A stretch of DNA of 55,843 bases, filler included, from Sphacelaria rigidula (Eukaryota): the NCBI GenBank assembly GCA_964200075.2. It is 3 parts of 3 records of this genome, joined end to end, with 100 filler letters (N's around TTAATTAATTAA, not from the genome) between each part and the next. Parts side by side here need not be neighbours in the genome. Positions count along the whole stretch, not along the records: positions 1 to 18,550 come from CAXNAA020000838.1; 2 more parts are not named here. One strand, given 5' to 3'. Positions 281-19,687 of this stretch are shown here, one piece after another. The notes below the pieces were generated by a model. That model was not told the DNA's origin. It was given only the letters and a program-made list of their open reading frames with translations, and made no database searches. The number at the start of each line of letters is the position of its first letter. Position 1 is the first letter of the stretch. The translations under genes were made by a program, and so were the position numbers.

Positions 281-769
281 TGTAATAAAGAGCAAGCGGC
301 AGTATAATGCAAGAACACAGCTTGCAACCCAAGGCACAAGCTTGGCGGGCAAGTGTACAACCGTCAGGCTGCTACAACTTGTAGATACTGTGTGACCTGC
401 TCAGTATCCAAATATCAAACGAGGTTTCACGCGAATAGGTCCTTCACTTCTCTCTTGATTATCTTGATTCTATCTCCAGTATCTACTCAATCAATCCAAA
501 CCAATCCAATGCGTCTCACCGATAGTTAGATTTTTTTTGCTGGAGGGCAATAGAGAAGCAGTTGATAGCGTGGAGGATGGGCGAGCTGTATGGGTTCCAG
601 CTGATCTATCTCGCCATCGTTTACCAATATACAAGCTCATATCCGTACCCGACCAACCCTGAACAGACCTGCAGTCTTGTTTACCGGGATTCCCAATATG
701 ACCGAAAGCCAGACTTCGATAACGGGTCTGAAGCGGCATGACAGCAGGTTAGTATCCATCTTCATGCCA
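281..769 (-). repeat. 3' LTR (489 bp)
   Basis: Direct repeat of 13957-14462. On the minus strand it begins TGGCATGAAG and ends TTATTACA. Confidence 0.93.
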
Positions 770-890
770 CTAACCCACCCAGACGAACCTTTATTGCAGC
801 TGCGAGGATGTATCCTCAAACCAGCGAAAACCAAGGTTTTTCTTTACTATACAAGTCATGAGCGGCTAATAAAGCATACCTAAAGGAATA

Positions 891-1220: not shown

Positions 1221-1461
1221 TAAAAACTGCAAGATCGAAAAGCTGAAAATCGGTGATCCAACGAGATCGAGCGCCAGATGAAGGGGATACAATGGCTCCA
1301 GTAGTCGTGGATAGCGGTCGTGTCAGTAGTTCTTTATCGTCGTCCGATATAGGTCGCGCTGTTGTGGTGTCGTAAAAGAAGATCCTGGTGGAGAAGGGAG
1401 AGCAGACAGTGCTTACGGAAAACAAATAGGGGTGGGGCAACAGTCACGACAATAGCGTGGT

Positions 1462-2079
1462 TCAAAGCGGGGCGTGGACGTCGTGGGTGTGGTCGATGTT
1501 GCGCTGGAGACCGCGGCGAAGTCCTTTGGACTTGAGGCGCTGGAGACACCAGGATCCGCGTGGTGTAAATGGGCTGGTGGTGTATAGCGCTGGCCAAAGC
1601 TTGAGCTGTATGGGTCCAGGGTCATCGATGAAGCGCTGTGTGTCGGCCGAAACCAGGTTAGCGGAGTGGGTCTGACCCAACCACCAGAAGTTTTCGCTGC
1701 CTTTGAACCAAAGGTAGCTGCCCTTGGGCAGGAGTCGCTGGTTCGCGAAGAACTTCGTCTTACAAGTCTTGGAGGGTACAAGTTCGTAACCATCGGCGAC
1801 AAAGCGTAGCCCCTCATTGCGGTGACGTTCGCGGGCTGCTGCGCCACGGCGCATGTTGCGATATTTCTTGTTGTGAGCAAGATGCTGATGTTGGGATTGC
1901 GTCCAGTAAAGGAGGATTGCACGACGGTGCAATTGCAGGTCGGATTCGCGTTCCCAAGACGCTCTCCGGAGACCGTGCCAGTGTGTCTTATACATGACAG
2001 CGATCTTGCTTCCTCGACCACGGGTTATCTGGTGGCCGGAAATGGAGGACACAGTCAGCCGAAGGGGCTGTTCCGTCAC
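1462..2079 (-). pseudogene. Pol C-terminus: chromodomain (1903-2058) plus PWWP/Tudor-like module (1540-1734)
   Basis: VSSISGHQ...VMYKTHWHGLRRASWERESDL matches the chromodomain WxG...SWEP/RxxxL pattern. It is followed by LPKGSYLWFKGSENFWWLGQ...RFIDDPG. Confidence 0.75.
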
Positions 2080-3400
2080 GTCGTCGGTTGTAACGTGGTA
2101 GGGCGGGGACTTGGTCGAGTAGCTGTTGAGAGCATACTGAGTGAGTCCGCAGGCAGGTACTTGGGCATGTCGCTTGTATCATGCGGGTTCGTGCAGGGTT
2201 TGCATCTGTGCACGGAGACGCGGGGCTTGGTGTTCTTGCCCTGGAAGTCGCGAGGCAAGTCGAGATAGAGCAGTTTGTCACCGACGGGTTTTTTATCCGT
2301 TGATGATGACGATGGTCCGACTGTCAGGATCTTGAATGGTCCTGTCCAATTGAGGGACAATTTTTTCTTCAAAATTGTTTCGTTGGCTGCTTCACTGGTG
2401 CCTTGGCGGATGGTCGACAAGTGTTGTAGATCCAAACCCAGTCACCAACTTTCCAGTTAGGGCGTTTGTGCATGACATTGTAGGAAGCAGTATTAGATCT
2501 CTCTAAGCGCGAGGCATTGGTAACGTGTTGTTCGCGCACGAGGGTGAACGCTTTGCGTTGTCGTGCATGCGTTAGCTCGTTGTAGGATAAATGATCCTGA
2601 TCCAATTCTTGGTGTCCGTCGAACGTGTGGCGCTCAAACACGGTGATAGGCAGCCGAGGGTAACGCCCAAGATGGAATTCGTTCGGAGAAAGGCTGGTGG
2701 CGGCATTAACCGAGGTGTTGTAGGACAACATGATGTGCGAGAGATTTAGGTCTCAGTCATTTTGGCGGTCATTGACAACCATAGAGAGCATCTTCTGGGC
2801 CGTGGTGCGATTAACTCTTTCGGTACCACCGTTACCGTTCGGGTGGTAGGCGCTCGTGGCAATTTTGCGTATGCCCAGGAGCTTGTAAAAAGCTCATCAG
2901 AGAGGTCTAAACAAAAGTGCTGACCATTGTCTGAAAGTAGTCGCTTTGGGCAACCGTAGTGCTTAATGTAATCATGGACCAGTATGTCAGCCGTTCCGGC
3001 GGCAGTGAAAGCTGCGGCGGTTACCGCGTACATGGACGCGTGGCGGCTAAAGCGGTCAGTGAAGAGTAAGATGTAGGTGTTGCCGCGACCTGTGATAGGT
3101 AGGGGGCCGAAGTAGTCAAAGGACACAAGGTGGCCGGGCTCGTCGGGGAGTCCCATAGAGATCACGGGCCAGCGTACTGTCTGTCGTGAAGTTTTTCGGG
3201 CTTGGCATTTAAAGCATCGCCGAATCCAGAAGCGGGTGGAAATTTCCATACCAACCCACCAGTAAAAGCGTTCCAAGAGCGCGAGGGTGCGGGTGACGCC
3301 AAGGTCGCATGACAAGTCTGTGTGACAGCCTTTCATGACCTAGGGGCGCATTAATAATGGCACATACATGCGCGTTGGTTCGTCATTGAGTAGTCGTGCG
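2076..3400 (-). pseudogene. Integrase (zinc-binding region, DDE core, GPF motif), frameshifted
   Basis: CHTDLSCDLGVTRTL...FYWW...CFKCQ; LVSFDYFGPLP; LLSDNG; LSYNTSVNAATSLSP; LNWTGPFKI. Confidence 0.93.
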
Positions 3401-4191
3401 GTGCGTCCCGTAGTTGGGGCGGCAATTGCGCTTGTCAAAGGCGTGGGCCGACGTACGAGTAGTTGCACGCCTCCATCCGTAGTGAAAAGGGTGCCTTTAC
3501 GCACGAGCTCGTATACGTCAGAGATAACTGGTGGTGGCTGTGTTCCAACCGGGGCCAGAAGTGTGGACGGAAAAGGGACTAGACAGTCAAGTTGTAAGTA
3601 CCGGGTGGCTGCGCAACATAGCGGTTCTGCGTTTTGTTCACGAGCCCAATCGTGGTGAGAATAGCTGGCGAGAAACTCGCGTAGTTGACATTCCGCTGGC
3701 GAGCCGACCAAACATGGCAGGGCAGGCGGCGGGGGAACAGGCGACGGGGCAGAAATGCCGACGTCAATTTTTGTTCCGGGAGCTGGAGACGAGTCGTCAG
3801 ATCCGTGCTCGGGGGCAGGAGATGTTTGCGGCGCCATTGTAGGCGGCGGGGTTGTATCAGTGCGCAGCGAAGATTGCTCGCGGCGCGTGGCGCACGGTGC
3901 AGAAGTTTTTGCGGAGCTTCGCGGGTTGGTCCCTGGAGCTTGTGCTGGGTGGCTCATATGGGTTACAGGTGTTGTTGGTGGCGGCGGGGCACTCAGAGTA
4001 GTGCGGGCGACAGACCGGGAGCGCGTGTTGTCGGAGATAAGATGGATGACTGGAAGTGTCTCCGCAAAGAGTTGCGCGCGAGTGCCGAAAGTGCGAAAAT
4101 CAACAAAATCGGAGGTAGTGGGCTCTAACACACCCAAGACGGCGTCATATGGTAGAGGGCAAGATCCTCCCATATGCATACCGGTTTCCGG

Positions 4192-4700
4192 TCACTGGAG
4201 GTCGAGGGCGTAAACAGGCGTTGAAAAACGTCTGATCGCGTAAATTCCGGGTTCATCGGGTTCCGTAAAACGGCAAGCCGGGCTGAAATCTGCGGCCGTA
4301 GGCGGCAGAGGTAAGTGGGAAAGAAGATCCGCGTTCCCGTTGGATTTGCTTGGACGGTGCTTACTGGCATACTGGTATGCTGTTAGAAACTCCAACCATC
4401 GTTGTACACGAGGGTTTTGTTCACCAACCTTGGCGAGTTGTTTAAGTGCTCCGTGATCCGTATAGATCTCGAAGGGCACGTGAAACAGATATTGTCGAAG
4501 GCGCTTAATGACTCAAGTGATTTCTCCGCATTCCAGTTCTAGCGGGCTCCAATTGGCCTCGTTGGGCAGGGTAGTGCGGCTGATGTAAAGGATGGGTCGG
4601 ACAGAGCCATCAACCTGAGGTTGATTCACACCTCCTCCAAAACCATTTGTGCTGGCGTCAGTATGGAGTTGGAAAAGGCGGGAGCCATCTTGTACTGCCT
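4192..4700 (-). pseudogene. RNase H of pol
   Basis: FQLHTDASTNGFGG, NWSPLELEC, FEIYTDHGAL, RVQRWLEFL, SNGNADLLS. Confidence 0.92.
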
Positions 4701-5690
4701 CCCAATCAGGAAAGCAAAGTATGGGCTTTTCGGCAAGCGTCTTGAGTAATTCGCGGGTGATATTCTCCATTTCTGTGGTGAAAGAAAACACGGCTCCTTT
4801 CTTGAGTGGCTCAGTAAGGGGGCGAATCCGTTTCGATAAATTCGGCAAAAAATTGCTGTAGTAGGATAGCCCACCCAACAATGAGCGAAGTTGAGAAATG
4901 TAAGTAGGCATCGGTAAATCAGTCATCGCCTTGACCTTGTTTGTATCCGGATGCAGGCCTGCTGGCGAAATGGGATGCCCCAAGAAATCCAAGTCAGTCG
5001 CGCCAAGGCGAGCTTTGGATGGAGACAGTTTCAAATCGTGCGTTCGTAGGCGAGAGAGAAATTCTCGTAGAGTGCGTATATGTGCGATAGGTGAGGCATC
5101 GAAAGCGATAGCGTCATCCAAGTACATGATGATGTGCTCGAGGCCCTCGGTGACGCGTTGCATTAAGCGTTGAAAGCACCCCGAGGCAGTGGCGGCGCCT
5201 TGTGGCATGCAAAGCCACTCATGGAGTCCGGACGAGGTGCAAAAAGCCGTCAGTGAGACTGTGTCAGGGTGTATAGCATTCTGAAAAAATCCAGAAGCGA
5301 GTTCGAAGGTGCTGAATATTTTGCCTTCGCCTAAGGAGTCGAAGACTTCATTAATGCGGGGAATTGGAAGTTTACCGACGACAGTGACGCGGTTCAACCG
5401 TTGATAATTCACGGTGATGCGTATGTTTCCATCCTTTTTGGGGACGACCACAAGTGGCGAGGCCCAAGGAAAGGAGGAATGTTGTATTAGTCCCGCTCCC
5501 AAATACGCGTCCAAGATGGCGTTAACTTTCTTGTTCAGGATTGGGTTGGTACGGTATGGCCGAGAAGAAATCGGCGAGACACCGGGTTGGAGGGTAACCT
5601 CAAAGGGCAGTGTTTTGCAATGCCCAAGGTCCGTCTTGGATCGGGAAAATCGGTCTTGGTACTGTAGCAGGACATCACTGAGTTCTTAGA
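4700..5690 (-). pseudogene. Reverse transcriptase of pol
   Basis: SFPWASPLVVVPKKDGNIRITVNYQRLN, MPQGA, YLDD (5113-5124), FLGHPI. Confidence 0.96.
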
Positions 5691-6359
5691 TGACTGCCGG
5701 TTTCCAGCCGGGCCCATAAAGGTCAAAATTGATGTCGCGCATGTGTGGCGGCAATTGGTTACACATGTGCAAGAAACTATTACGAGAATCTGGTGATAAG
5801 CGTTGAAGCACTTCAGCAGGAGGATCGGAATTTGACTGAGCAGGATCCACGGTGTGGACCTGGGGTGGAATAGTAGAGGCGAGATTGAAATAAGGTTCAT
5901 CGACACAACGTACTGATTCCGCCGGAGATGTGGTGTTTGGTGCGGCAGGCTCTGTGACGCACGTCTCGAGTGGGATGTGCATCAGGGGAGCAGCGGCGGT
6001 TCCTAAAACATCGCCGGGTTCTAAGTTAGCATGTCCCGTAAGAGAGAGGAGTTGTTGTCCCACCGACACGAAATGTTCTGTGTCGGCCGGTGCGCCAATA
6101 CGGGATAACATTTCGGCAAGATAATGGCCTGTAAGTGCTGGCATGCCATTTCGGCGAACGAATGCAACTTCAAGAAGTTGGGGGTCGTCGGAGAGTGTTA
6201 TACCCACGCTGCCGTTATATCGTAGGTGGTAAGCAGCTCCCGGTTGCTTGAGGATTCCTCTGATAAGCCAGGGCGCCGTGCAGAGTACCGGAGTGCTCGA
6301 GGTTGAATTCTCCACGCGGCGGGGAATGTGGCGTTAGTGGTGGAAGCGTGCGGTAGGTG

Positions 6360-6680
6360 CGTTTATCAAACCGCATATAGCTATCTCTGCCCAATAATAT
6401 GGCGTGATGCATGGTGCTGTTGGGGACAACGTATGCCCCGACTGCCAGGCTGGCAGATCGAGTGGTGTTGTGAAAGAATTGCACACTGAGACGTACGGAT
6501 TTACGAGTCGTTAGTGGCGCGGCAGAGTCACCGAAACCGCCCCACACGCGAGGTTTGGTGGTGGTTTCGCAAGCTGCAGTAGCAGCGCCAGTCTGTTTCA
6601 TGTGTTTCCATGTTGATTCTCAAATAAATGTTTGCGGGCTGCCGCTGTCCAACAAGGATACGCATTTCGTAGGCGTGATA
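6360..6680 (-). pseudogene. Aspartic protease of pol
   Basis: SLLDSGSPQTFI (DSG at 6641-6649) continues past an in-frame TGA into ...HAILLGRDSYMRF. Confidence 0.9.
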
Positions 6681-7640
6681 GCGTTTGGACCGGAATGGAT
6701 TGCAACGCGATTAGTGAAAGTGGCCGGATTGACAGACACTTTGCCGCCGACAAGATCCTGACCGTGTTGCGGCAAGGTAACCTGGTCAGGATCAGCGGGG
6801 CTGACAGCAAAAACGCACGGCGGATGATCCGCCGGTGGGTCAGATGTCTCACCAGAGAAGGGGGCGGACGGTATATTATTTCCAGGTGTGGCACGGTCAT
6901 TGGCGATTTCGTAAATTATCGTCTTTGGTTGACAGGGATCACAGTCAACGGGGGATGCAGAATGCGCGGGGCTGAAGCCGTCGATTGAAGAAGCAGTGCC
7001 GTCAGAATCATGGGCTTTTGTTTCTTCCGGGATACTTGATAGAGCCGTCGAGCTCAAAGTCGTCGCATTTTGGAGAGATTGAGGTCGAGGATTTCCGCTC
7101 GAAAGAGGTGTACGTAATGATGCGCGCGCGTCCTTGGGGACATGCTTACGGGGCTTTCTCTTTCGCCGTGACAAAGGTCGGGAAACTTCCAAAGTATTTG
7201 GGGATGAAACCACAACTGCGTCCAGTTGCGTGGATGGGGTCAGCATCGGGGCATGACGGAGCGAAACTTGTGGGCTGCTTTCCGTAGGCGAGTTTGGCTG
7301 TTGGGGCATAGCCGAAGATATGTTGGGGCGGTTGTTAATAAAACCGGCCGAAGGTAAGTCCGTGCGTCTTGAAAATCGCGGGGAAGGAGTCCGATCGAAC
7401 TGATTGGGAATTACATGAGCTGGTGTGGTCAGGTTCAAATCAGCAACACTTGGGTCAGCCGAAAAAGGCTTGCTGCTACCTGTGCGTGCGGTCGCTGAGG
7501 AAAGCCTTTGCCTCAGGGACTGGCGGTTGGTCTTCCCACACCTCAGACTTATACTCGGTACTGAAGGACCAACTTCAGTGCCGGGTGTAGGTCTGAGTCG
7601 CGGGGTGTCACAACTGTTACGCGGTGTGTGGAGGGGCGAA

Positions 7641-7808
7641 GACGGGGGTCGATTTGAACGGCCGTCAGTTGCGCTCCTGCATAGTGCCGGAAGAGCCGGG
7701 CGGACAATGTTAGTCGCGGGCTCTGCGAGCTGTGTTGAAAATTGTGTGGAGGTTCGAGACGGGGGTCGATATGAACGGCCGTCAGTTACGCTCCTGGACA
7801 GTGCCGGG
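7641..7808. repeat. Internal ~50-bp direct duplication in the Gag-PR spacer
   Basis: gacgggggtcgatttgaacggccgtcagttgcgctcctg at about 7641 and a near-identical copy at about 7758. Both encode PAL.RS.TDGRS.RPPS. Confidence 0.85.
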
Positions 7809-8041
7809 GGAGTCGAGTGAGCAATTTTTGACACGGACTCCGCGGGCTGTGTTGAAACATTCTTCGCTCGTGCTAGCGACGGCGTGGAAGACCGAAGAAC
7901 GCCGGCGTCGGCACGTCATGGATCTAAGCGATCCGTAGTGAAGGTACCAGGGTTTCTGGTGTTGGGATTAGAACTTCGTGTCGGTCCCGTCCGCTGGTGT
8001 CTATCAGCGGAACGGTTGTTGTTACGAGACTTTTGATCGTT

Positions 8042-9290
8042 CTACCGAGGGCTTCCGTGATTGTTGTTGTGTCGGCGACCGCGATTAGAGTTTTTGTTGC
8101 CACGTTGATTCGAATTGTTGCGGTAACTTCGAGTTGGTGGACGATAATCGCGCATACGTTTTTGCCATCGGCGCCACGCGGGTTCATTGTCCTGCAATTC
8201 AGGGTTCATGAGATCAAAGGCATTAATGCATGGACTGTCACAGTCGCGCATGCTGTGGCCTTGAACACTATAGTTGATGCAACTGTTGGCATGACTGCTG
8301 AAGGCATTGCGTCTAGCGGATGACGGAAGAAGTGGGTTCCACAAATGGGGATCATCGGTTATGAATGTCGTTGTTAAAGTCAGATAAACATCATCCCAAG
8401 TTTCCCCGGAAACGGCCGACCGTCAAAAGTCGCGCTAAAAGCATCTGGTACTTTGAACATGCATAACTGAACCGTCGACTGAGTCGGGGGTTCATGAAGC
8501 GCGAGACGAACTCGAATTCCTACCGCGAGCCCCTTGGGCATGAGCGGAGGACACAACCGTAGGTTGTGAACGCACAGACGTTGAAGGTTTGCCACGTACG
8601 GCAGGCGTTAGATTACCCTCTTGGTGTACAAAAGCAGACCACATAGTATCAACGGAGGCGTAAGGCACCTCGCGATGCGCCAAGACACCCGGAAACAACG
8701 ACGCCATCAGAGCCGGCTCCTGTTGAGCAACGCTATTGCGGACATAAGTCTGACACATTGCATCGCTCGGTCCATTCTGGCGTCCGACACCCGTCGTACT
8801 CGAAACCAAAAGCTTAAATTCGCGGAGATAATCCGCGAAGGGGACATGAGATGCTACGACAAAAGAACTCAGCATCTGGATGAAGCTGGCTTGATCACTT
8901 TTGTCAAAGTAGCCTATGAGACGCCTTTCCAAATCAGAGAGTAATTGCGGGCCTGTCTTCCCTTGGGAACGATCCGGATCCATCTCCGCGAGGAATCCGT
9001 CGAGCATCTGCGTCAAAGAAGCAGCGAGGTCGGGAGAGCGGCGGATGATCGATCGATGCATTGCTTTGTGTAAGGGAGTCTGCCAGCCCTCTACCCAGTC
9101 TGAGTCTTCGAAACGTTGTGTGCCAGTCACATCCGCCAAGTGAAGGATGTTACAAACAGTGCGGCGGATGGACGTGATGAGGGCAGAAGTAAACTGGCCC
9201 GAATCTTCGTTATCCGCGGCAGGCATGGTTTTTATGTGCCAGAGTTATTTCACATGCATCTGAATATACTGTCTTAGTATTGCAGCTACT
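8042..9290 (-). pseudogene. Gag core and zinc knuckle
   Basis: Helical capsid-like ORF 8492-9226 (PFADYLREFKLLV). Knuckle CINYSVQGHSMRDC at 8240-8281 is CX2CX4HX4C with the second Cys changed to Tyr. Confidence 0.8.
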
Positions 9291-12200
9291 CGGGCAGACT
9301 CAGCTCTATCGGAAGCTGCTCTTTTTTCTAGCTTCCGAACGTTCTCTGTCGGCCGCGACGGTTGCTAAAGCGCGGGCTGCAGTAGAGGACAAAGGACGGT
9401 CAGGTGTATCCGTATCGGACAAACCTAAAATGCGGGCCGAAACATCAGCCAACTTCGGAACCACTTGCCTGGGCCTGGGGGTCTCCGAGCCCGAGGCGGG
9501 AAGAGCTGCACCGGACCAGTTCCAGGCCAATGCGGATGAGGCGGAAGAGTTGCCTCCAGCGTACTTGTTTTTCGGCTTGCGAGGCGGGCGGTTCGGTCCG
9601 GAACTGCTGGAAAAAGATCCTCCACCGCCATGGCGGCGGCGTGAATTCCCTCTCCATCGATATCATCGTCGTCGCGCCGGTGATTTTTCTTCTGTCCCCG
9701 GCAGTTGGATGTTGCGGGAGTCCACCCATCTTCATCTTCGTCTCCGTTGAGGGTAGCGCCGGGATGAACGTTGAAGGCAGCGCGAAGCGCCGCAAAAAGT
9801 TCCTCGACCGCTTCAACGTAAGTGTGGTGGTCCCGGTGATCGCCAATGGTAGTCTGCAAAACCAGTTGGCCCAAGGTGAGCACCGAGACACCTGCCTTGG
9901 GGAGGAAGCCGTTCTGTTCGACATACACGCCAACCGTGTAAAAAATACGCTGGGATATCAAGGCCCAGGCGGTTGGGGAGCAGTGCAGGTGGTTTCGCCG
10001 GTCGAAGGGGCCGGTATAGGTTGACACAGGACAAGAAAGCCCTTCTCGTTCGTGAGACACCAGCCGCAAGTTTGGCGAAGAAACTGTGTGCAGCACCGAG
10101 CTAACTCCGTGACGCGGCGGTGTCGAAGGCGTCGTGATGGCGGCAGCGGCCGCAGCAGGCGCCGTCCTGTTCGACTTGCGAGGGATGACATACGTCGCTC
10201 TGTTGGACGCCGGCAGGTGGGGCCTGAGCAAGTTGTCGATGGAAGGCGGAGTGGCTTGATAATCAGTCAGGCGGGCCGCCGACGAAGTCGCTGCTTGAGC
10301 GGTCCGCTGAACATGATCTTCGAGTTGACGAACCCGTCTTTGAGCCGCCGTAGCCGCAGTACGGCTTTCGCCCAGCGCTCGTTGAGCCGCCGTGCTCGTG
10401 GATTGAGCAAGGGAGGCCTGCCGCTGGAGATCCTTGAGAGTACTCGCGTGCTTCTCCATAAGGAGGCGGGCAGCGGCGGCGTCGGCGTCGCGTTGTTTGC
10501 CGAGGATGTTCCTGCGACTCATAGTCAGCGACGAGTTGTTGCTGTTCTGCGCGTGGCCGGTTGGTGAACAGGCGTAAGAGCAGGCCGGTGGGGCAGTGCT
10601 CATCGGCAAGCGGAGGGAGAACCTCCACGAAGGGGGCAGGGCGCACAGGGGCCGTGGTGGAGCCGCTATCGGCATCCGTGTCGATAGCAGACGGAGCGGC
10701 GGCGGTTGTATGAGCCGACGCAGGGGCGGCCGCAGGCGCAGCAGTCGCGGTAGCGGCAGCAGGAGCTCCGGGAGCGCGAATGGTCTTGCTGGCAGTAGCG
10801 GTAGTGCGTTGGGCGTCCATAGTTGCTGTCGCGAGTTGCCGTTCGACGTCTGTCAAACGTTGTCGCAGAGAACGAATAAGCGCACCGTCGGAACGGGACG
10901 GTGGTTCGCGGTCAGTGCGTTGTCGTCGGTTGTGCGATGAGGTGCGGTCGGATCCTGCAAGTGAGGATTCCGGAGCCGGTGACATGTCCGATAAATATGT
11001 TTTGGATATCTTCAGCATGTACAGTGTTATCATTGCGTACATGACGGTTGTGTGACAAAGGCTGAGCAGTAGAGATGCGCGAAGGTGCATGATCGGAGTT
11101 GTTTGAGCGCGAGTTAACGCGCGAAGGACTTGATCTGGGCCGCAAGGCATCCTCGTGAGTACGGCTATGGTTAGTGTTCACCGGGCGCTCAGGAGCGCGG
11201 GATGAATTGGAACTATGGCGTGAACTACCTTCATATTTGTGTCCATGAGCGATATTCTTCGGGCGTGTGGAAGCGCGCGATGAATTCAAGCTTTGCTTGG
11301 AGTGGCCCTTAGAACTGCTAGAACGGGAGACATGGTCATGACCAAGTCTCGGTGTGCGGCGCCGGTCAGAAGCGCGAGTACGGCTCTGCTGCGACGTTGA
11401 GGAAGGGCTGGACTCATGTTCGTTGAATTTATCATGAGTAACGAACGGAGGGCGCGATGTCGCCGAACGGGTCGCCAGACGTACGGGTTTGGGCGTCGCA
11501 GGTGCAGAATTATCATTGAATTGCACATGAGCAGACACCGACTGATCTTGGAGCGTGGCGTGGCAAAAAGCCGTAAATGCCTCGATGAGAGCTGGCGCTG
11601 GCGATGGCGATGACGCGGAGGAGGTGCGATGCAGAGTTTGCATGGCAGCATGCATGGCCGTAACTGCAGGTTCGACATTGGACTGCGCAGTAGGGCGCAT
11701 GGGACTATCAAGAGTCTTGCGAAGGGGGTCCGTAACGGAAGCAGCCCGTGTGACAAAGTCTCTTGCTCCAGAAGCGATGCGCTTTGTCGGGACAGAATCG
11801 TCTCGAGAGTTGTCAGCCGTCAAGTGACGGGATGCCACGGTTGAAGCAACCGTGACAGGGCCGAGCTGGACACGTGTGTCCAGGGGCAACGACTCGACTG
11901 AGGGCACAATCCTAACTCCGGATTCCACGTTGGGATTCGGGGGAGCAGGGGCCAGCGAGGGGTGTGTGACGGAATCCACCGTTATGGGCTCACTGACATA
12001 CGCGTCAGGAACCAATGACCTGGCCGGGTGCACTACTATGTTCTCTGGGTCCGAGTCGGAACGTGAGAGAACAGGTCTCGGCGTCCAAGTCTGGTCTTCA
12101 AGTGTTGAAGAATGAGCTTCGCTCGAATGTTGGTCTTCATATCCCAAAGAACAAGCAGCACTCGCATACGTGCGGCGATGTGTTGAAGGTGGCGTACCGC

Positions 12201-12303
12201 TTATCTTGAAAGATTTCGAACCGCCCGTAGTTTGACTCCGGGTCCGGCGGAGCGATTGGTTTCCCAATTGAGGGGAAGAGCCAGCGTTATTTTTGTGCGA
12301 CAT
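9290..12303 (-). pseudogene. Long N-terminal extension of Gag (Ser/Pro/Thr/Ala-rich, coiled-coil segments, one possible globular patch)
   Basis: Overlapping ORFs 10912-12303 (ATG start), 10263-11150, 9425-10675, 9445-9933 and 9306-9530 join by single frameshifts and lead into the Gag core. Confidence 0.65.
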
Positions 12304-13937
12304 GATAATCGTACGCAGCCTTTGTGCTTAAAAAGGAAGGTGTAGTATGCTGATCTGCGGCTCTAATCAAAGTAGCGTGACACCAGGTGATGCTACGTGC
12401 AGAAGCCGAAGCTTGATCCGGGAAATACTGGATAATGAAGCCTAATAGCGCCTGAGGGGACCGTGGGATCTGATTTACTTGAGTAATTTATTCAAGCGAA
12501 TTGCGGTTGGTAACAAGTATGCCCGGGGTCTGATTAATACAACTTTATTCAAGTTGTGGCGGTAATAGCTAGCACGGGGTTGTGCACAGAACAGGCGTAT
12601 GTTGTCGAAGACAAGCGAAGACCCGATTGTCTGTAGCAGCGTTGGTGCGTGGAAGAACAACTGACACCTGTTCCGGATGTAAGATTCCAGCCCAAGTTGA
12701 GGAACGACTGGCGGTGTGCAAATGAAAAGAACTAAAGATATATATATATATATATTCTCAAATGCGCACGAAAAATGTGCAGCGTAAGGCAGCACAAAAG
12801 CTTTTACAAAGCTTGGGTTGTAGACCGCGAACTCCGACTGCGGAGTGCAGAGCAAAGGCTTGTTATCCAACGAAGTTGGGACAACGTATGTATGCGGAAC
12901 AAAGATGGTGTGATGCACAACAGGGGCAACGCTGAGGGCGGGTGCCGACAACGTTTTGAATGCACAGGCAAGGGGCACCGATTTCGAGTGCTGTCTGTTC
13001 AAATGAGCGCGTAACGGAGCTTGAAATGTTTCAACCAGTGATATTTCAACAAAATCGTCTCGGAACAATGAATTTGTTCGTTCGAGAAGGGTTCAAATGA
13101 GAAAAAACTCACAGTGCGTTATGATGATGTGTATTGTTACTTACCACGGTGATGTACCGCGTTGCCTTACGGTTGTGCGAGGTACACAAGAGGACAACAA
13201 GAACAAGTAGCCACCAGCAACGAAGCTAAAGCTACAACAACAACAAGGTCGCTACGAGCAACGAAGGTAAAGTGCCGGAACAACCCAAGGTTCGTGTGCA
13301 GATGTCCGTTATCACACTGTGTGAACACGGTTTGTACTTGTTCAGTAATTTCGTGAAGGAAAGATACAACAGTTGCGTACAATCGATACTGACAAATAAG
13401 AGCAGCAGCGTGCCGGCTTGGCAGGAGCTTAGGTCAGGAACAGCGGCTGGCGATGAACAACAGTACGCCTTTGTGCACTGGTGTTCTGTACAAACCTGTA
13501 GTAGAAGGCTTATTCTGTAGAAGGAAAGGGGGCCACAAGACCAAATACACGAGCCAACGATGGCTTGGTGCGGGGGTCGAGCCGGGCTGGTGAATCACGA
13601 AAAGATTCACAGCCGTGCAGGCGAATTTGATACCGTGGGGCCTTGTACAGGTGATGTCAAATTGACAGCACGGCAAGAATAGCAAGCAGTGCGCGTTGAC
13701 CCCACGTTGACCACACAAGATGTGGCATCGAGCTCTACAGCAATTGCAAGTAGCAAGGCACGAATACACTTTACCGAGGGACACACGGGGCAGAAGCTCG
13801 AGAGCTACTGACTACCTGGCGGTAGATTTGACCACAACTCCGAAGGGAAAAGGGGAAAACGATCAAAAAGCTGGAGTACACAGCCGGCAGTCTGGGATAC
13901 AAATCGGTACAAGAAAGAAGCGCAATAGCCAAAGAAG

Positions 13938-13955
13938 CTCCTTAGTCAAACGCCA
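13938..13955 (-). promoter_or_regulatory. Primer binding site
   Basis: TGGCGTTTGACTAAGGAG lies 1 nt inside the 5' LTR end. It is complementary to a tRNA 3' end ...ACGCCA; the tRNA is not identified. Confidence 0.7.
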
Positions 13956-13956
13956 A

Positions 13957-14462
13957 TGTAATAAAGAGCAAGCGGCAGTGTAATGCAAGGACACAGCTTA
14001 CTACCCAAGGCACAACCTTGGCAGACAAGTGTACAACCGTCAGGTTGCTACAACTTGTAGATACCGTGTGATCTGCTCAGCATCCAAATATCAGACGAGG
14101 TTCACGCGAATAGGTTCTTCACTTCTCTCTTGATTATCTTGATTCTAACTCCAGTACCCACTCAATCCGTCCAATTCAACCCAATGCGTCTCACCGATAG
14201 CTAGGCTTCTTTTGCTGGAGGCCAATAGAGGAGCAGTTGATAGTGGCTGATGAGGGGGGCTTTGATCGTGTAGCACGATCAAATACAAAGCCATCCCTGT
14301 AATTATACAGGTTCACATTCGCATCCGACCAACTCTGAACAGACCTGTAGTCTTGTCTACCGGGATTCCTTGTCTACCGGGATTCCCAATACTACCGAAA
14401 GCCAGACTTCGACAACGGTTCTGAAGCGGCATGACCACAGGCTAGTATGCATCTTCATGACA
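13957..14462 (-). repeat. 5' LTR (506 bp)
   Basis: On the minus strand it begins TGTCATGAAG and ends TTATTACA. It contains a 17-bp tandem duplication at 14352-14385. Confidence 0.93.
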
Positions 14463-15127
14463 TAACCCATCTGGATCACGCATACTTTCCCCAGTAAAAT
14501 TGATCGTGATTCAGAAGGTGACCGGGTCTTTTATCGGGATCAAGCACACCTTTTCAGGTGAAATTGATGCCAATTCAACAGAGGACCTACTCTCGCCGTC
14601 AGAGGGTTAACCGCGTGACCGCGGCGGTTGTTCATCATGGACCATATACAGCCATACAAAGCGGTACAGTAAGTAAGTGACTGAAATGTTGTGCAGAAGA
14701 AATTCTTGTCAACATGCGTGGCGTCGTGCACCACCACCGATCACGGTAATCTGACGACGGTCAAACGGTTAACCCTCAGACCGCGATGCGGGTAGTCCAT
14801 CTGAAATACGCATACTTTCCCCAGTGAAATTGATGCCAATTCAGCAAGTGACCTACCCTCGTGGTCAAAGGATCAACCGTTTGACTGCAAGGATCGGTCA
14901 TCGCAATCAAGCATACATTTTCAGGTGAAATCGATGCCGATTCAACAAATGACTAACTCTCGCCGTCAAAGGATCAGCCGTTTGACCGCGGTGGTTGTTC
15001 ATCATGGGCCATATATAGCCAATCACAGCACAACAGCAGGTGGGCGACTGATAAGATGTGCAGAAGTAATCATCGTCAACGTGCCCGGCGTCGGGCACTG
15101 CCACTGACCACGGCAATCCGACTACGC
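14463..15127. mobile_element. Tandem cluster of piggyBac-type (TTAA-CCC...GGG-TTAA) mini-MITEs with a duplicated spacer
   Basis: agagggTTAA at 14601-14610 and TTAAccctcagaccgcga at 14769. 14540-14760 is repeated at 14907-15127. Confidence 0.75.
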
Positions 15128-18550: not shown

Positions 18551-18650
18551 NNNNNNNNNNNNNNNNNNNNNNNNNNNNNNNNNNNNNNNNNNNNTTAATT
18601 AATTAANNNNNNNNNNNNNNNNNNNNNNNNNNNNNNNNNNNNNNNNNNNN
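18551..18650. other. Assembly gap with artificial TTAATTAATTAA linker
   Basis: 44 N + TTAATTAATTAA + 44 N. An identical construct is at 37201-37300. Confidence 0.95.
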
Positions 18651-19687
18651 GCCCAATTCGTTTCCGGTGATGAGATATTGCTCTGCCAGGTTAAATCCGT
18701 TTCTGGGCTGGCCCAGCTCGTAGCACGCCCAGCTAGATCATGTGCATCGACATACTTCGGAGCCTTTAGCAACGGCAGGAGAAGGTCGCGATCGCGAGCA
18801 TTTCGGGGAAGGTGAAATGAACCGCTGCTGAGGAGCCAACCCGACACAAGGATCGACACGGCGGCGCGATCCCGATGCAGTTCGAAATCACCTCTTCTGA
18901 CACCCGACGGCGACATTTGCGTTATCGACCGCCGCCATGAGCGTCTCGTACGCGACCTGTGTGACGGTACCACGCGGTTGCAGAGGAAGGTCGGACGGAA
19001 GTACGTGGAGTTGTACGGTCGGCATTTGGATACAGTGTATGTTCTCATTACTACGGCTCGGCGGCACCTGGCGTTGTACACCGCGTGGTTGCTGCCCCTC
19101 GGAAATGGCGTCCACAACGTGAAACCCTGAGGAGCGGCAGCGACGCGTTCATAACCTCTGATTCTGTGTATGGTCTTCACGTGGCGGATTGATCGAAGCC
19201 TGAAATGGCGCCACGGTCGAAAAAATATCACATCGGGGAGATTTCGGTGATGGAAACGGATCAACAAAATTCTCCAGAATTGTTCTTCACCTGGACCCCA
19301 ACGTTCCGGTGATCGGGACCAAATTTTAATAGCGTGTAGTGGTCATCAATAGCTGCCAAGAATGCAACGATATATTGAGGGACTGGTGTGGATACAACTT
19401 TTATTTTCCGGGTTTTCATCCTCGAAGACAAGCTCCATCATCACTGCTGCACGAAAACAAATTCTGGATACGTGGGCCCCAAGATCGAAAAAATGAGTTT
19501 TTGAGGGGCGCTTGCCGGAGGGACGGACACACGCCTAGTCTGTTATCCCCTAGTTTATAGCCGATGCGTCGGTTTATGTGGTCAGCTGCTATGTAAACGG
19601 ATCTCTGACATGGAGGCCGCCACGTAGGGCCAACGTTCGCGAGATACTTCACTTACCATGCTTGCATTTATGGGATCATCATGATCT

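Follow-up and report, generated by a model that had tools for sequence, protein, structure and literature searches.

Nowhere is it clearer than with integrase-fused chromatin readers that a mobile element can pick its landing sites by reading chromatin, and to our knowledge the known cases carry one reader each. A locus of Sphacelaria rigidula raises the question of whether an integrase can end in two. A first-pass annotation of the window (the whole 55,843-nucleotide stretch of DNA analysed here) read the open reading frame (ORF) at 1462–2079 as an integrase tail in which a chromodomain is followed by a second, PWWP/Tudor-like reader, and did not recognise this arrangement as characterised. 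It is necessary to ask, then, what this ORF belongs to, how its parts are predicted to fold, whether they are kept in other copies, and what a tail of this kind would do.

The open frame and the element that carries it

The 205-codon ORF lies on the minus strand (the plus strand at these positions is stop-rich), and all of the strings quoted in the annotation are present in its translation, which runs from a chromodomain-like stretch (ISGHQITRGRGSKIAVMYKTHWHGLRRASWERESDL) through a basic helix to LPKGSYLWFKGSENFWWLGQ...RFIDDPGPI...GSWCLQ. The GTG at 2079 is no genuine start codon; upstream of it the frame remains open as far as 2178 and contains a YLPAGLTQYVLN...SPPYHVT stretch that is typical of the family and that, in relatives, bridges the tail and the integrase C-terminal region. 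By tblastn, residues 514–769 of the relative P0151 and 1568–1834 of the relative P0167 align onto 2259–1480/1492 of the window. The description of the ORF as an integrase tail is borne out by this open frame, which continues the family's integrase, and by relatives that carry the tail in frame; it encodes the C-terminus of Pol/integrase and is no separate gene. The GPF motif reported ahead of the chromodomain does occur upstream of the tail, but it lies outside the ORF, at 2334–2342, and in another frame (ORF 2076–2435).

The element around the tail is a Ty3/gypsy (Metaviridae) LTR retrotransposon on the minus strand, in which reverse transcriptase (RT) is followed by RNase H and then by integrase (a zinc finger and the rve core), with LTRs on either side (Table 1). 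Pfam matches to RVT_1 and RT_RNaseH fall within 4513–5514, and collinearity with P0167 spans 6778–1492 of the window. The LTR pair is 82.7% identical over 521 columns (blastn), and a search at the ends of the LTRs turned up no target-site duplication. A second RNase H family was not found by Pfam in the window element or its relatives, unlike the oomycete Chronos elements, which are described as combining an integrase-chromodomain fusion with a second RNase H (PMC5348765).

The window copy is dead, since its pol contains in-frame stops and three frame breaks. Stops at 5688, 4515, 4194 and 3342 lie where the window aligns with P0167 in a single frame, one additional stop lies in the next frame segment, and the pol frame changes near 2887, 2418 and 2150. 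The tail has a lesion of its own: residue 148, in the third barrel strand, is Gln in this copy and aromatic in 86% of relatives, and contigs of other copies diverge from the window there (loose ends at 1639 in 8 contigs of run X1).

The 5' half of this 14.2-kb element (window 6800–13950) holds ~7 kb of long low-complexity ORFs on the minus strand (8492–9226, 9425–10675, 10263–11150 and 10912–12303), which match no Pfam family at E ≤ 0.1 except for one chance-level match. A gag region would not normally take up so much sequence, and a nested insertion may be part of it. The interval from the pol stop to the 3' LTR contains tandem repeats at 890–929 and 1090–1218 (a 14-nt unit present 2.8 times, and a 42-nt unit present 3.1 times with 83% matches). 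Elsewhere in the window, a run of N at ~18600–18650 (186 N in the window) is read through as X by an ORF at 18599–19267.

Table 1. Features of the retrotransposon and of its integrase tail, in window coordinates
Feature	Position	Strand	Evidence and remarks
3' LTR	281..777	-	blastn against 13957-14469
Pol C-terminal tail, open frame	1462..2178	-	Translation; stop codon 1462-1464; ORF 1462-2079 is the ORF-finder core
Short C-terminal end, residues 183-205	1465..1533	-	RG.QRN.D motif conserved; two short low-confidence helices
Predicted five-stranded Tudor-like barrel, residues 117-182	1534..1731	-	AF2 strands; profile matches; conservation
Conserved basic helical linker, residues 61-116	1732..1899	-	AF2 pLDDT blocks 77-93; column counts
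Chromodomain-fold module, ORF residues 8-60	1900..2058	-	AF2, Foldseek, Pfam, Swi6 alignment, column counts
Integrase C-terminal (GPF/Y) region	2076..2435	-	Frame differs from tail; break near 2150; GPF at 2334-2342
Integrase zinc-binding and catalytic core	2746..3336	-	Pfam Integrase_H2C2 E 7e-10; rve E 3.2e-7
Reverse transcriptase and RNase H, broken by in-frame stops	4192..5514	-	Pfam RVT_1 E 4.6e-20; RT_RNaseH_2 E 2e-11
Whole pol remnant	1462..6778	-	Collinear with 1848-aa relative P0167, residues 24-1834
5' LTR	13957..14469	-	blastn against 281-777

Predicted fold of the tail and its modules

From the single tail sequence, AF2 gave no usable fold (pLDDT 31.3), whereas with alignment A2 as input (146 sequences of relatives) it reached a pLDDT of 85.4 and a pTM of 0.78. 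In this model a chromodomain part (strands 10–20, 26–34 and 41–44, then a helix at 45–60) is followed by a linker (helix 71–88, a short strand at 98–100 and helix 103–111), by five barrel strands (122–126, 132–137, 146–150, 156–159 and 177–182; pLDDT 69–94) and by two short C-terminal helices of lower confidence. The pLDDT falls to 69 at residues 141–150, the same place as the lesion of the window copy. The second module that the annotation had placed at residues 116–180 coincides with the predicted barrel, AF2 predicts five strands there, as the SH3-like barrel on which its proposal depended would require, and the basic helix that it saw after the chromodomain falls in the linker, which is basic and conserved (Y73 82%, R77 79%, A81 86%, R83 83% and R87 83%). 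Foldseek found no PDB match to the whole tail model at E ≤ 0.001 and no meaningful match in BFVD, and a phmmer search of the PDB with the ORF returned only one spurious dehydratase match (E 0.11).

In the AF2 model the first module shows the three-stranded sheet capped by a C-terminal helix that defines a chromodomain fold, and its top Foldseek matches in the PDB are chromodomains (Swi6, cpSRP43, MPP8, Polycomb and CBX7), with probabilities of 0.99–1.00 and rmsd of 1.8–4 but E-values of only 0.058–0.6. Pfam Chromo (PF00385) matches the window ORF at E 0.087 (13.2 bits, below the gathering threshold of 25.1) and 20 of the 146 family members at E ≤ 1 (best 1.7e-4), and neither Chromo nor Tudor matches P0151–P0153 at E ≤ 1. 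When the cage is mapped through an alignment of the family profile to Swi6 (E 0.071), the family columns hold Leu in 61% and an aromatic residue in 3% at position 1 (Leu8), Trp in 91% at position 2 (Trp34), and Leu in 71% and an aromatic residue in 4% at position 3 (Leu37), so that of the classical three-aromatic cage (HP1 Y24, W45 and Y48) the middle Trp alone is kept. The annotation was right that the first cage aromatic is missing but incomplete, as the alignment and the family columns show the third to be missing too, and methyl-lysine reading by this chromodomain is doubtful because two of its three cage aromatics are missing.

The one-Trp cage pattern is reported for shadow chromodomains and for the chromodomains of plant group II retrotransposons, which resemble the present module in that they are without cage residue 1 and usually residue 3, and whose ligand is given as unknown (PMC3350952). 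ECR-1, the centromeric Gypsy of Ectocarpus, is likewise a brown-algal integrase-chromodomain fusion, but it is described as keeping all three cage aromatics where the present family keeps one (PMC11541908), which makes the present chromodomain a domain of another kind.

The barrel matches no Pfam family above threshold. A profile built from 24 barrel-containing fragments (A3) and searched against the PDB hit 12 distinct sequences, all 12 of them PHF19 or PHF1 Tudor domains, at E-values of 0.015–0.77 that fall short of significance, and in the A3 alignment Tudor strands 1–3 fall on AF2 strands 1–3. Nine of the 14 PDB matches of the A2 profile were again PHF19/PHF1 Tudor domains; four were chromodomains (three MPP8 and Swi6), which match the first module, and one was an unrelated protein. 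The barrel and the Tudor domain of these Polycomb-like proteins are in register over strands 1–3 and have in common a G, D-G-L, L-G-K-I and V-x-F-x-D, whereas the present family has a 17-residue insert before strand 5, no PHD fingers and an integrase context. At the positions that we take to form the PHF1 cage, two of four are aromatic in the family by HMM alignment, and a small residue stands where the first cage Trp of PHF1/PHF19 presumably lies.

Other searches gave a broader spread. Sub-threshold Pfam matches among the 146 members were to SH3_VIII-1_N (12), Agenet (6), DUF3314 (6), PWWP (1), Tudor_2 (1) and Myosin_N (1), and among the 24 A3 members to SH3_VIII-1_N (5), Agenet (2), PWWP (1) and Myosin_N (1). 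For residues 452–552 of P0152, a protein atlas named Spin-Ssty, KIF2A-like_1st, PTM_DIR17_Tudor, Tudor-knot/Tudor_4, DUF4772 and MBT, with scores of 0.79–0.84 that make them leads only; Spin-Ssty, PTM_DIR17_Tudor, Tudor-knot and MBT are weak leads of Tudor type, and residues 90–205 of the window copy gave no usable match in the atlas. No Tudor domain was among the top Foldseek matches listed for the whole model except for a poor UHRF1 match (probability 0.15).

Each of these lines is weak alone, and together they point to a barrel of the Tudor-like Royal/SH3 type. The label ‘Royal-family-like’ is reasonable because the only PDB sequence matches of the barrel are PHF19/PHF1 Tudor domains. The ‘PWWP/Tudor-like reader’ of the annotation survives in this sense, but its PWWP half does not: 1 of the 146 members matches PWWP (PF00855), at E 0.12, and the motif is L-W-W-L-G, not P-W-W-P. 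Nor does hhalign detect the barrel as a duplicate of the element's own chromodomain or of the integrase C-terminal region (probabilities of 0.4% and 0.9%, respectively).

Conservation of the tail among relatives

A phmmer search of 1.84 billion representative proteins gave 429 matches at E ≤ 1e-3, 146 at E ≤ 1e-10 and 7 at E ≤ 1e-30, and many of these relatives cover residues 1–205 at 31–75% identity. The tail stands in frame behind the integrase in P0151 (779 aa), P0152 and P0153, in 13 of 28 longer matches with an rve domain, and in 21 polyproteins of 1016–3234 aa, and at one locus (L002) a single unbroken ORF of 1602 aa encodes RT, RNase H, integrase and tail. Chromodomain, linker and barrel are all kept in 29 of the 29 long tails examined. 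Within the barrel, conserved positions include W124 (69%), K126 (64%), D129 (68%), W132 (80%), W133 (72%), G135 (81%), R149 (80%), F150 (73%), P154 (84%), P156 (87%), W177 (74%) and C178 (80%), and the second Trp and the Phe (W133 and F150) are replaced in the divergent members P0095 and P0137. With hundreds of relatives and these conserved columns, the persistence of the motif in other copies, on which the first-pass proposal also hinged, can be affirmed. In a metagenome scan that kept 80 of 111 relatives, 3 loci reach the tail and 77 cover the integrase core only; a viral-contig scan with P0038 found no relative.

Across three loci with intact copies, the barrel has a pN of 0.22–0.27 against a pS of 0.68–0.76, and pN is 0.10–0.13 in the integrase core and 0.10–0.22 in the chromodomain; pN and pS are reported instead of dN/dS because synonymous sites are saturated (pS 0.57–0.82). 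These substitution patterns indicate that the tail is under purifying selection, weaker than that on the catalytic core.

The few relatives with a named source come from brown algae (among the 21 long matches, five proteins belong to Ectocarpus sp. CCAP 1310/34 and two models bear the label Undpi1). Six of the 21 long relatives (P0176, P0185, P0186, P0188, P0193 and P0201) have a NADAR domain (PF08719) ahead of the RT (P0176 residues 59–203, E 1.9e-40), and no NADAR match was found in the window copy in the collinearity comparison with P0167. Public runs in which portions of the stretch occur carry as labels ‘algae metagenome’, ‘marine sediment metagenome’ or a coded organism. In two runs ~7000 short contigs map on 4.2 kb (window 1400–5600) at 90–99% identity, so the family is highly repeated there. 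Where the window copy differs from other copies over 1400–5600 (runs X1, X2, X6 and X7), the changes are mostly transitions (for example, A>G at 59–70 and G>A at 43–67 places, and each transversion type at 1–24). Two gene models, P0020 and P0199, join a tail fragment to unrelated domains (TIMP and WSC in one, a kinase and a cNMP-binding domain in the other) and have probably arisen as chimeric predictions that run over the remains of a transposon.

The barrel also occurs in proteins that are without RT or integrase: P0086 (612 aa) and P0102/P0160 (828/832 aa) end in the barrel, and P0055 (626 aa) ends in the whole cassette of chromodomain and barrel. P0086 and P0102 align as homologues from end to end (29% identity, E 5e-59), and the N-terminal parts of P0086, P0102 and P0055 match no Pfam family. 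A reading of these three proteins as the element's Gag is unsupported, since those N-terminal parts have no match in the window or in the 21 long polyproteins. P0055, P0086, P0102 and P0160 might represent host genes, the donor of the cassette or a domesticated copy of it, or else non-autonomous elements or partners that would share its targeting system.

The alignments and the AF2 model together establish that a conserved, in-frame, two-module cassette, confidently predicted to fold, exists on the integrase. In working copies the integrase ends in this fixed cassette of a one-aromatic chromodomain, a basic helical linker and a Tudor-like barrel.

Proposed chromatin tethering and the alternatives

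A 2025 survey of Ectocarpus transposons describes four Gypsy lineages, of which three have ‘putative C-terminal chromodomains’; one chromodomain lineage always occurs with NADAR (for example, Gypsy-12_Ec32), and Gypsy-10_Ec32 has a C-terminal Tudor domain that the survey calls the first in any reported transposable element, domains having been called with InterProScan or HHpred (PMC12477816). The present family resembles these lineages in having a reader fused behind the integrase and, in 6 of 21 long relatives, NADAR, but theirs, compared by description, carry one reader each and here two stand in tandem (PMC12477816). Because the tail is found in both NADAR-bearing and NADAR-free polyproteins, it could underlie the survey's ‘putative chromodomain’, its ‘Tudor’ or, in different lineages, both; either published label might name one half of the present cassette. 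The statement that the arrangement is uncharacterised therefore needs to be narrowed: the tandem is not described in the portions of the survey drawn on here, but a single integrase-fused chromodomain or Tudor was published in 2025 (PMC12477816). A literature search on chromodomain, Tudor and integrase brought up, in the texts it covered, no other description of a tandem tail, and a survey of reader-transposon fusions reports mostly Chromo and PHD domains (bioRxiv 10.1101/2021.11.30.470311).

The brown-algal chromodomain lineages are placed outside both chromoviruses and Chronos (PMC12477816, PMC11541908). Chromoviruses such as MAGGY and Tf1 are alike in having a Ty3/gypsy integrase with a C-terminal chromodomain that is linked to targeted integration, and integrase-fused chromodomains are reported to direct integration, as in MAGGY (PMC3350952). 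Their proteins end in the chromodomain, whereas ~145 further residues, including the barrel, follow it here.

The PWWP domain of LEDGF/p75, a Royal-family barrel of the host, tethers HIV integrase to marked chromatin in trans; here, by contrast, the reader would be part of the integrase itself. By analogy with integrase-fused chromodomains elsewhere, we consider it moderately probable that through a histone mark the cassette holds the integration complex on chromatin, which would bias where new copies land. The barrel would be a likelier reader of a methylated histone tail than the cage-poor chromodomain, which together with the basic helices could add contacts to the nucleosome or to a partner. 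The ligand of the PHF1/PHF19 Tudor domain is H3K36me3.

It is also possible, although not the outcome that we expect, that the barrel and the basic helices bind nucleic acid or a host chromatin protein and not methyl-lysine, in which case the tail would still tether or target. DNA is a ligand of the SH3-like C-terminal domains of integrases, and PWWP domains recognise both DNA and histone. A strongly basic and highly conserved linker, an aromatic cage that is incomplete in both modules, divergent members that lose W133 and F150, and a myosin SH3-like domain, no histone reader, as the commonest sub-threshold Pfam match are consistent with binding of this kind, whereas the PDB sequence matches are to histone-reading Tudor domains only and the Trp-Trp pair and the Phe are kept in most members.

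Tethering through a histone mark also has to be considered in terms of the chromatin of the host lineage. Brown algae are reported to have no H3K27 methylation and largely no H3K9 methylation, with H3K4me3, H3K9ac and H3K36me3 accompanying activity and H3K79me2 and H4K20me3 accompanying repression (PMC13076208). By that account, a host poor in H3K27 and H3K9 methylation fits a chromodomain that is without its cage and has a second reader beside it, and candidate marks present in brown algae would be H3K36me3, H4K20me3 and H3K79me2. A more specific proposal, that the cassette is a self-contained two-part reader adapted to hosts poor in H3K27 and H3K9 methylation, with a chromodomain that gave up its cage, with a barrel that steers integration by reading H3K36me3, H4K20me3 or H3K79me2, and with cassette or barrel possibly exchanged with non-Pol genes, strikes us as rather unlikely to hold in full.

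That the tail is mainly structural, its chromo-shadow-like module and barrel aiding integrase multimerisation or regulation without a part in target choice, is improbable. A Trp-only cage is the shadow chromodomain pattern (PMC3350952), Foldseek lists an HP1 chromo shadow domain at rank 10, and the pTM of the model suggests that the modules may pack as one rigid body. Against this, the well-studied integrase-fused chromodomains are, in the accounts drawn on here, all tied to targeting (PMC3350952, bioRxiv 10.1101/2021.11.30.470311, PMC11541908), and the presence of the barrel at the end of proteins without integrase argues for an autonomous binding module. Finally, the idea that the frame is open by chance, or is decayed sequence that encodes no domain, to which a broken and old copy and a nearly blank Pfam result might lend some colour, is refuted for practical purposes by hundreds of relatives, intact in-frame copies, a confident fold and a pN far below pS.

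What is new here is the tandem cassette, as the general idea of reader-fused Gypsy elements in brown algae was already published in 2025 (PMC12477816). Because Pfam recognises neither of its modules, the cassette will be overlooked by automated annotation. A chromodomain and a Tudor-like barrel in tandem, conserved in a family that is both large and abundant, would make a natural targeting device of two parts. In a host lineage whose chromatin is reported to be without the usual chromodomain ligands (PMC13076208), the ligand of this cassette would reveal which marks such elements use as preferred or safe places to land.
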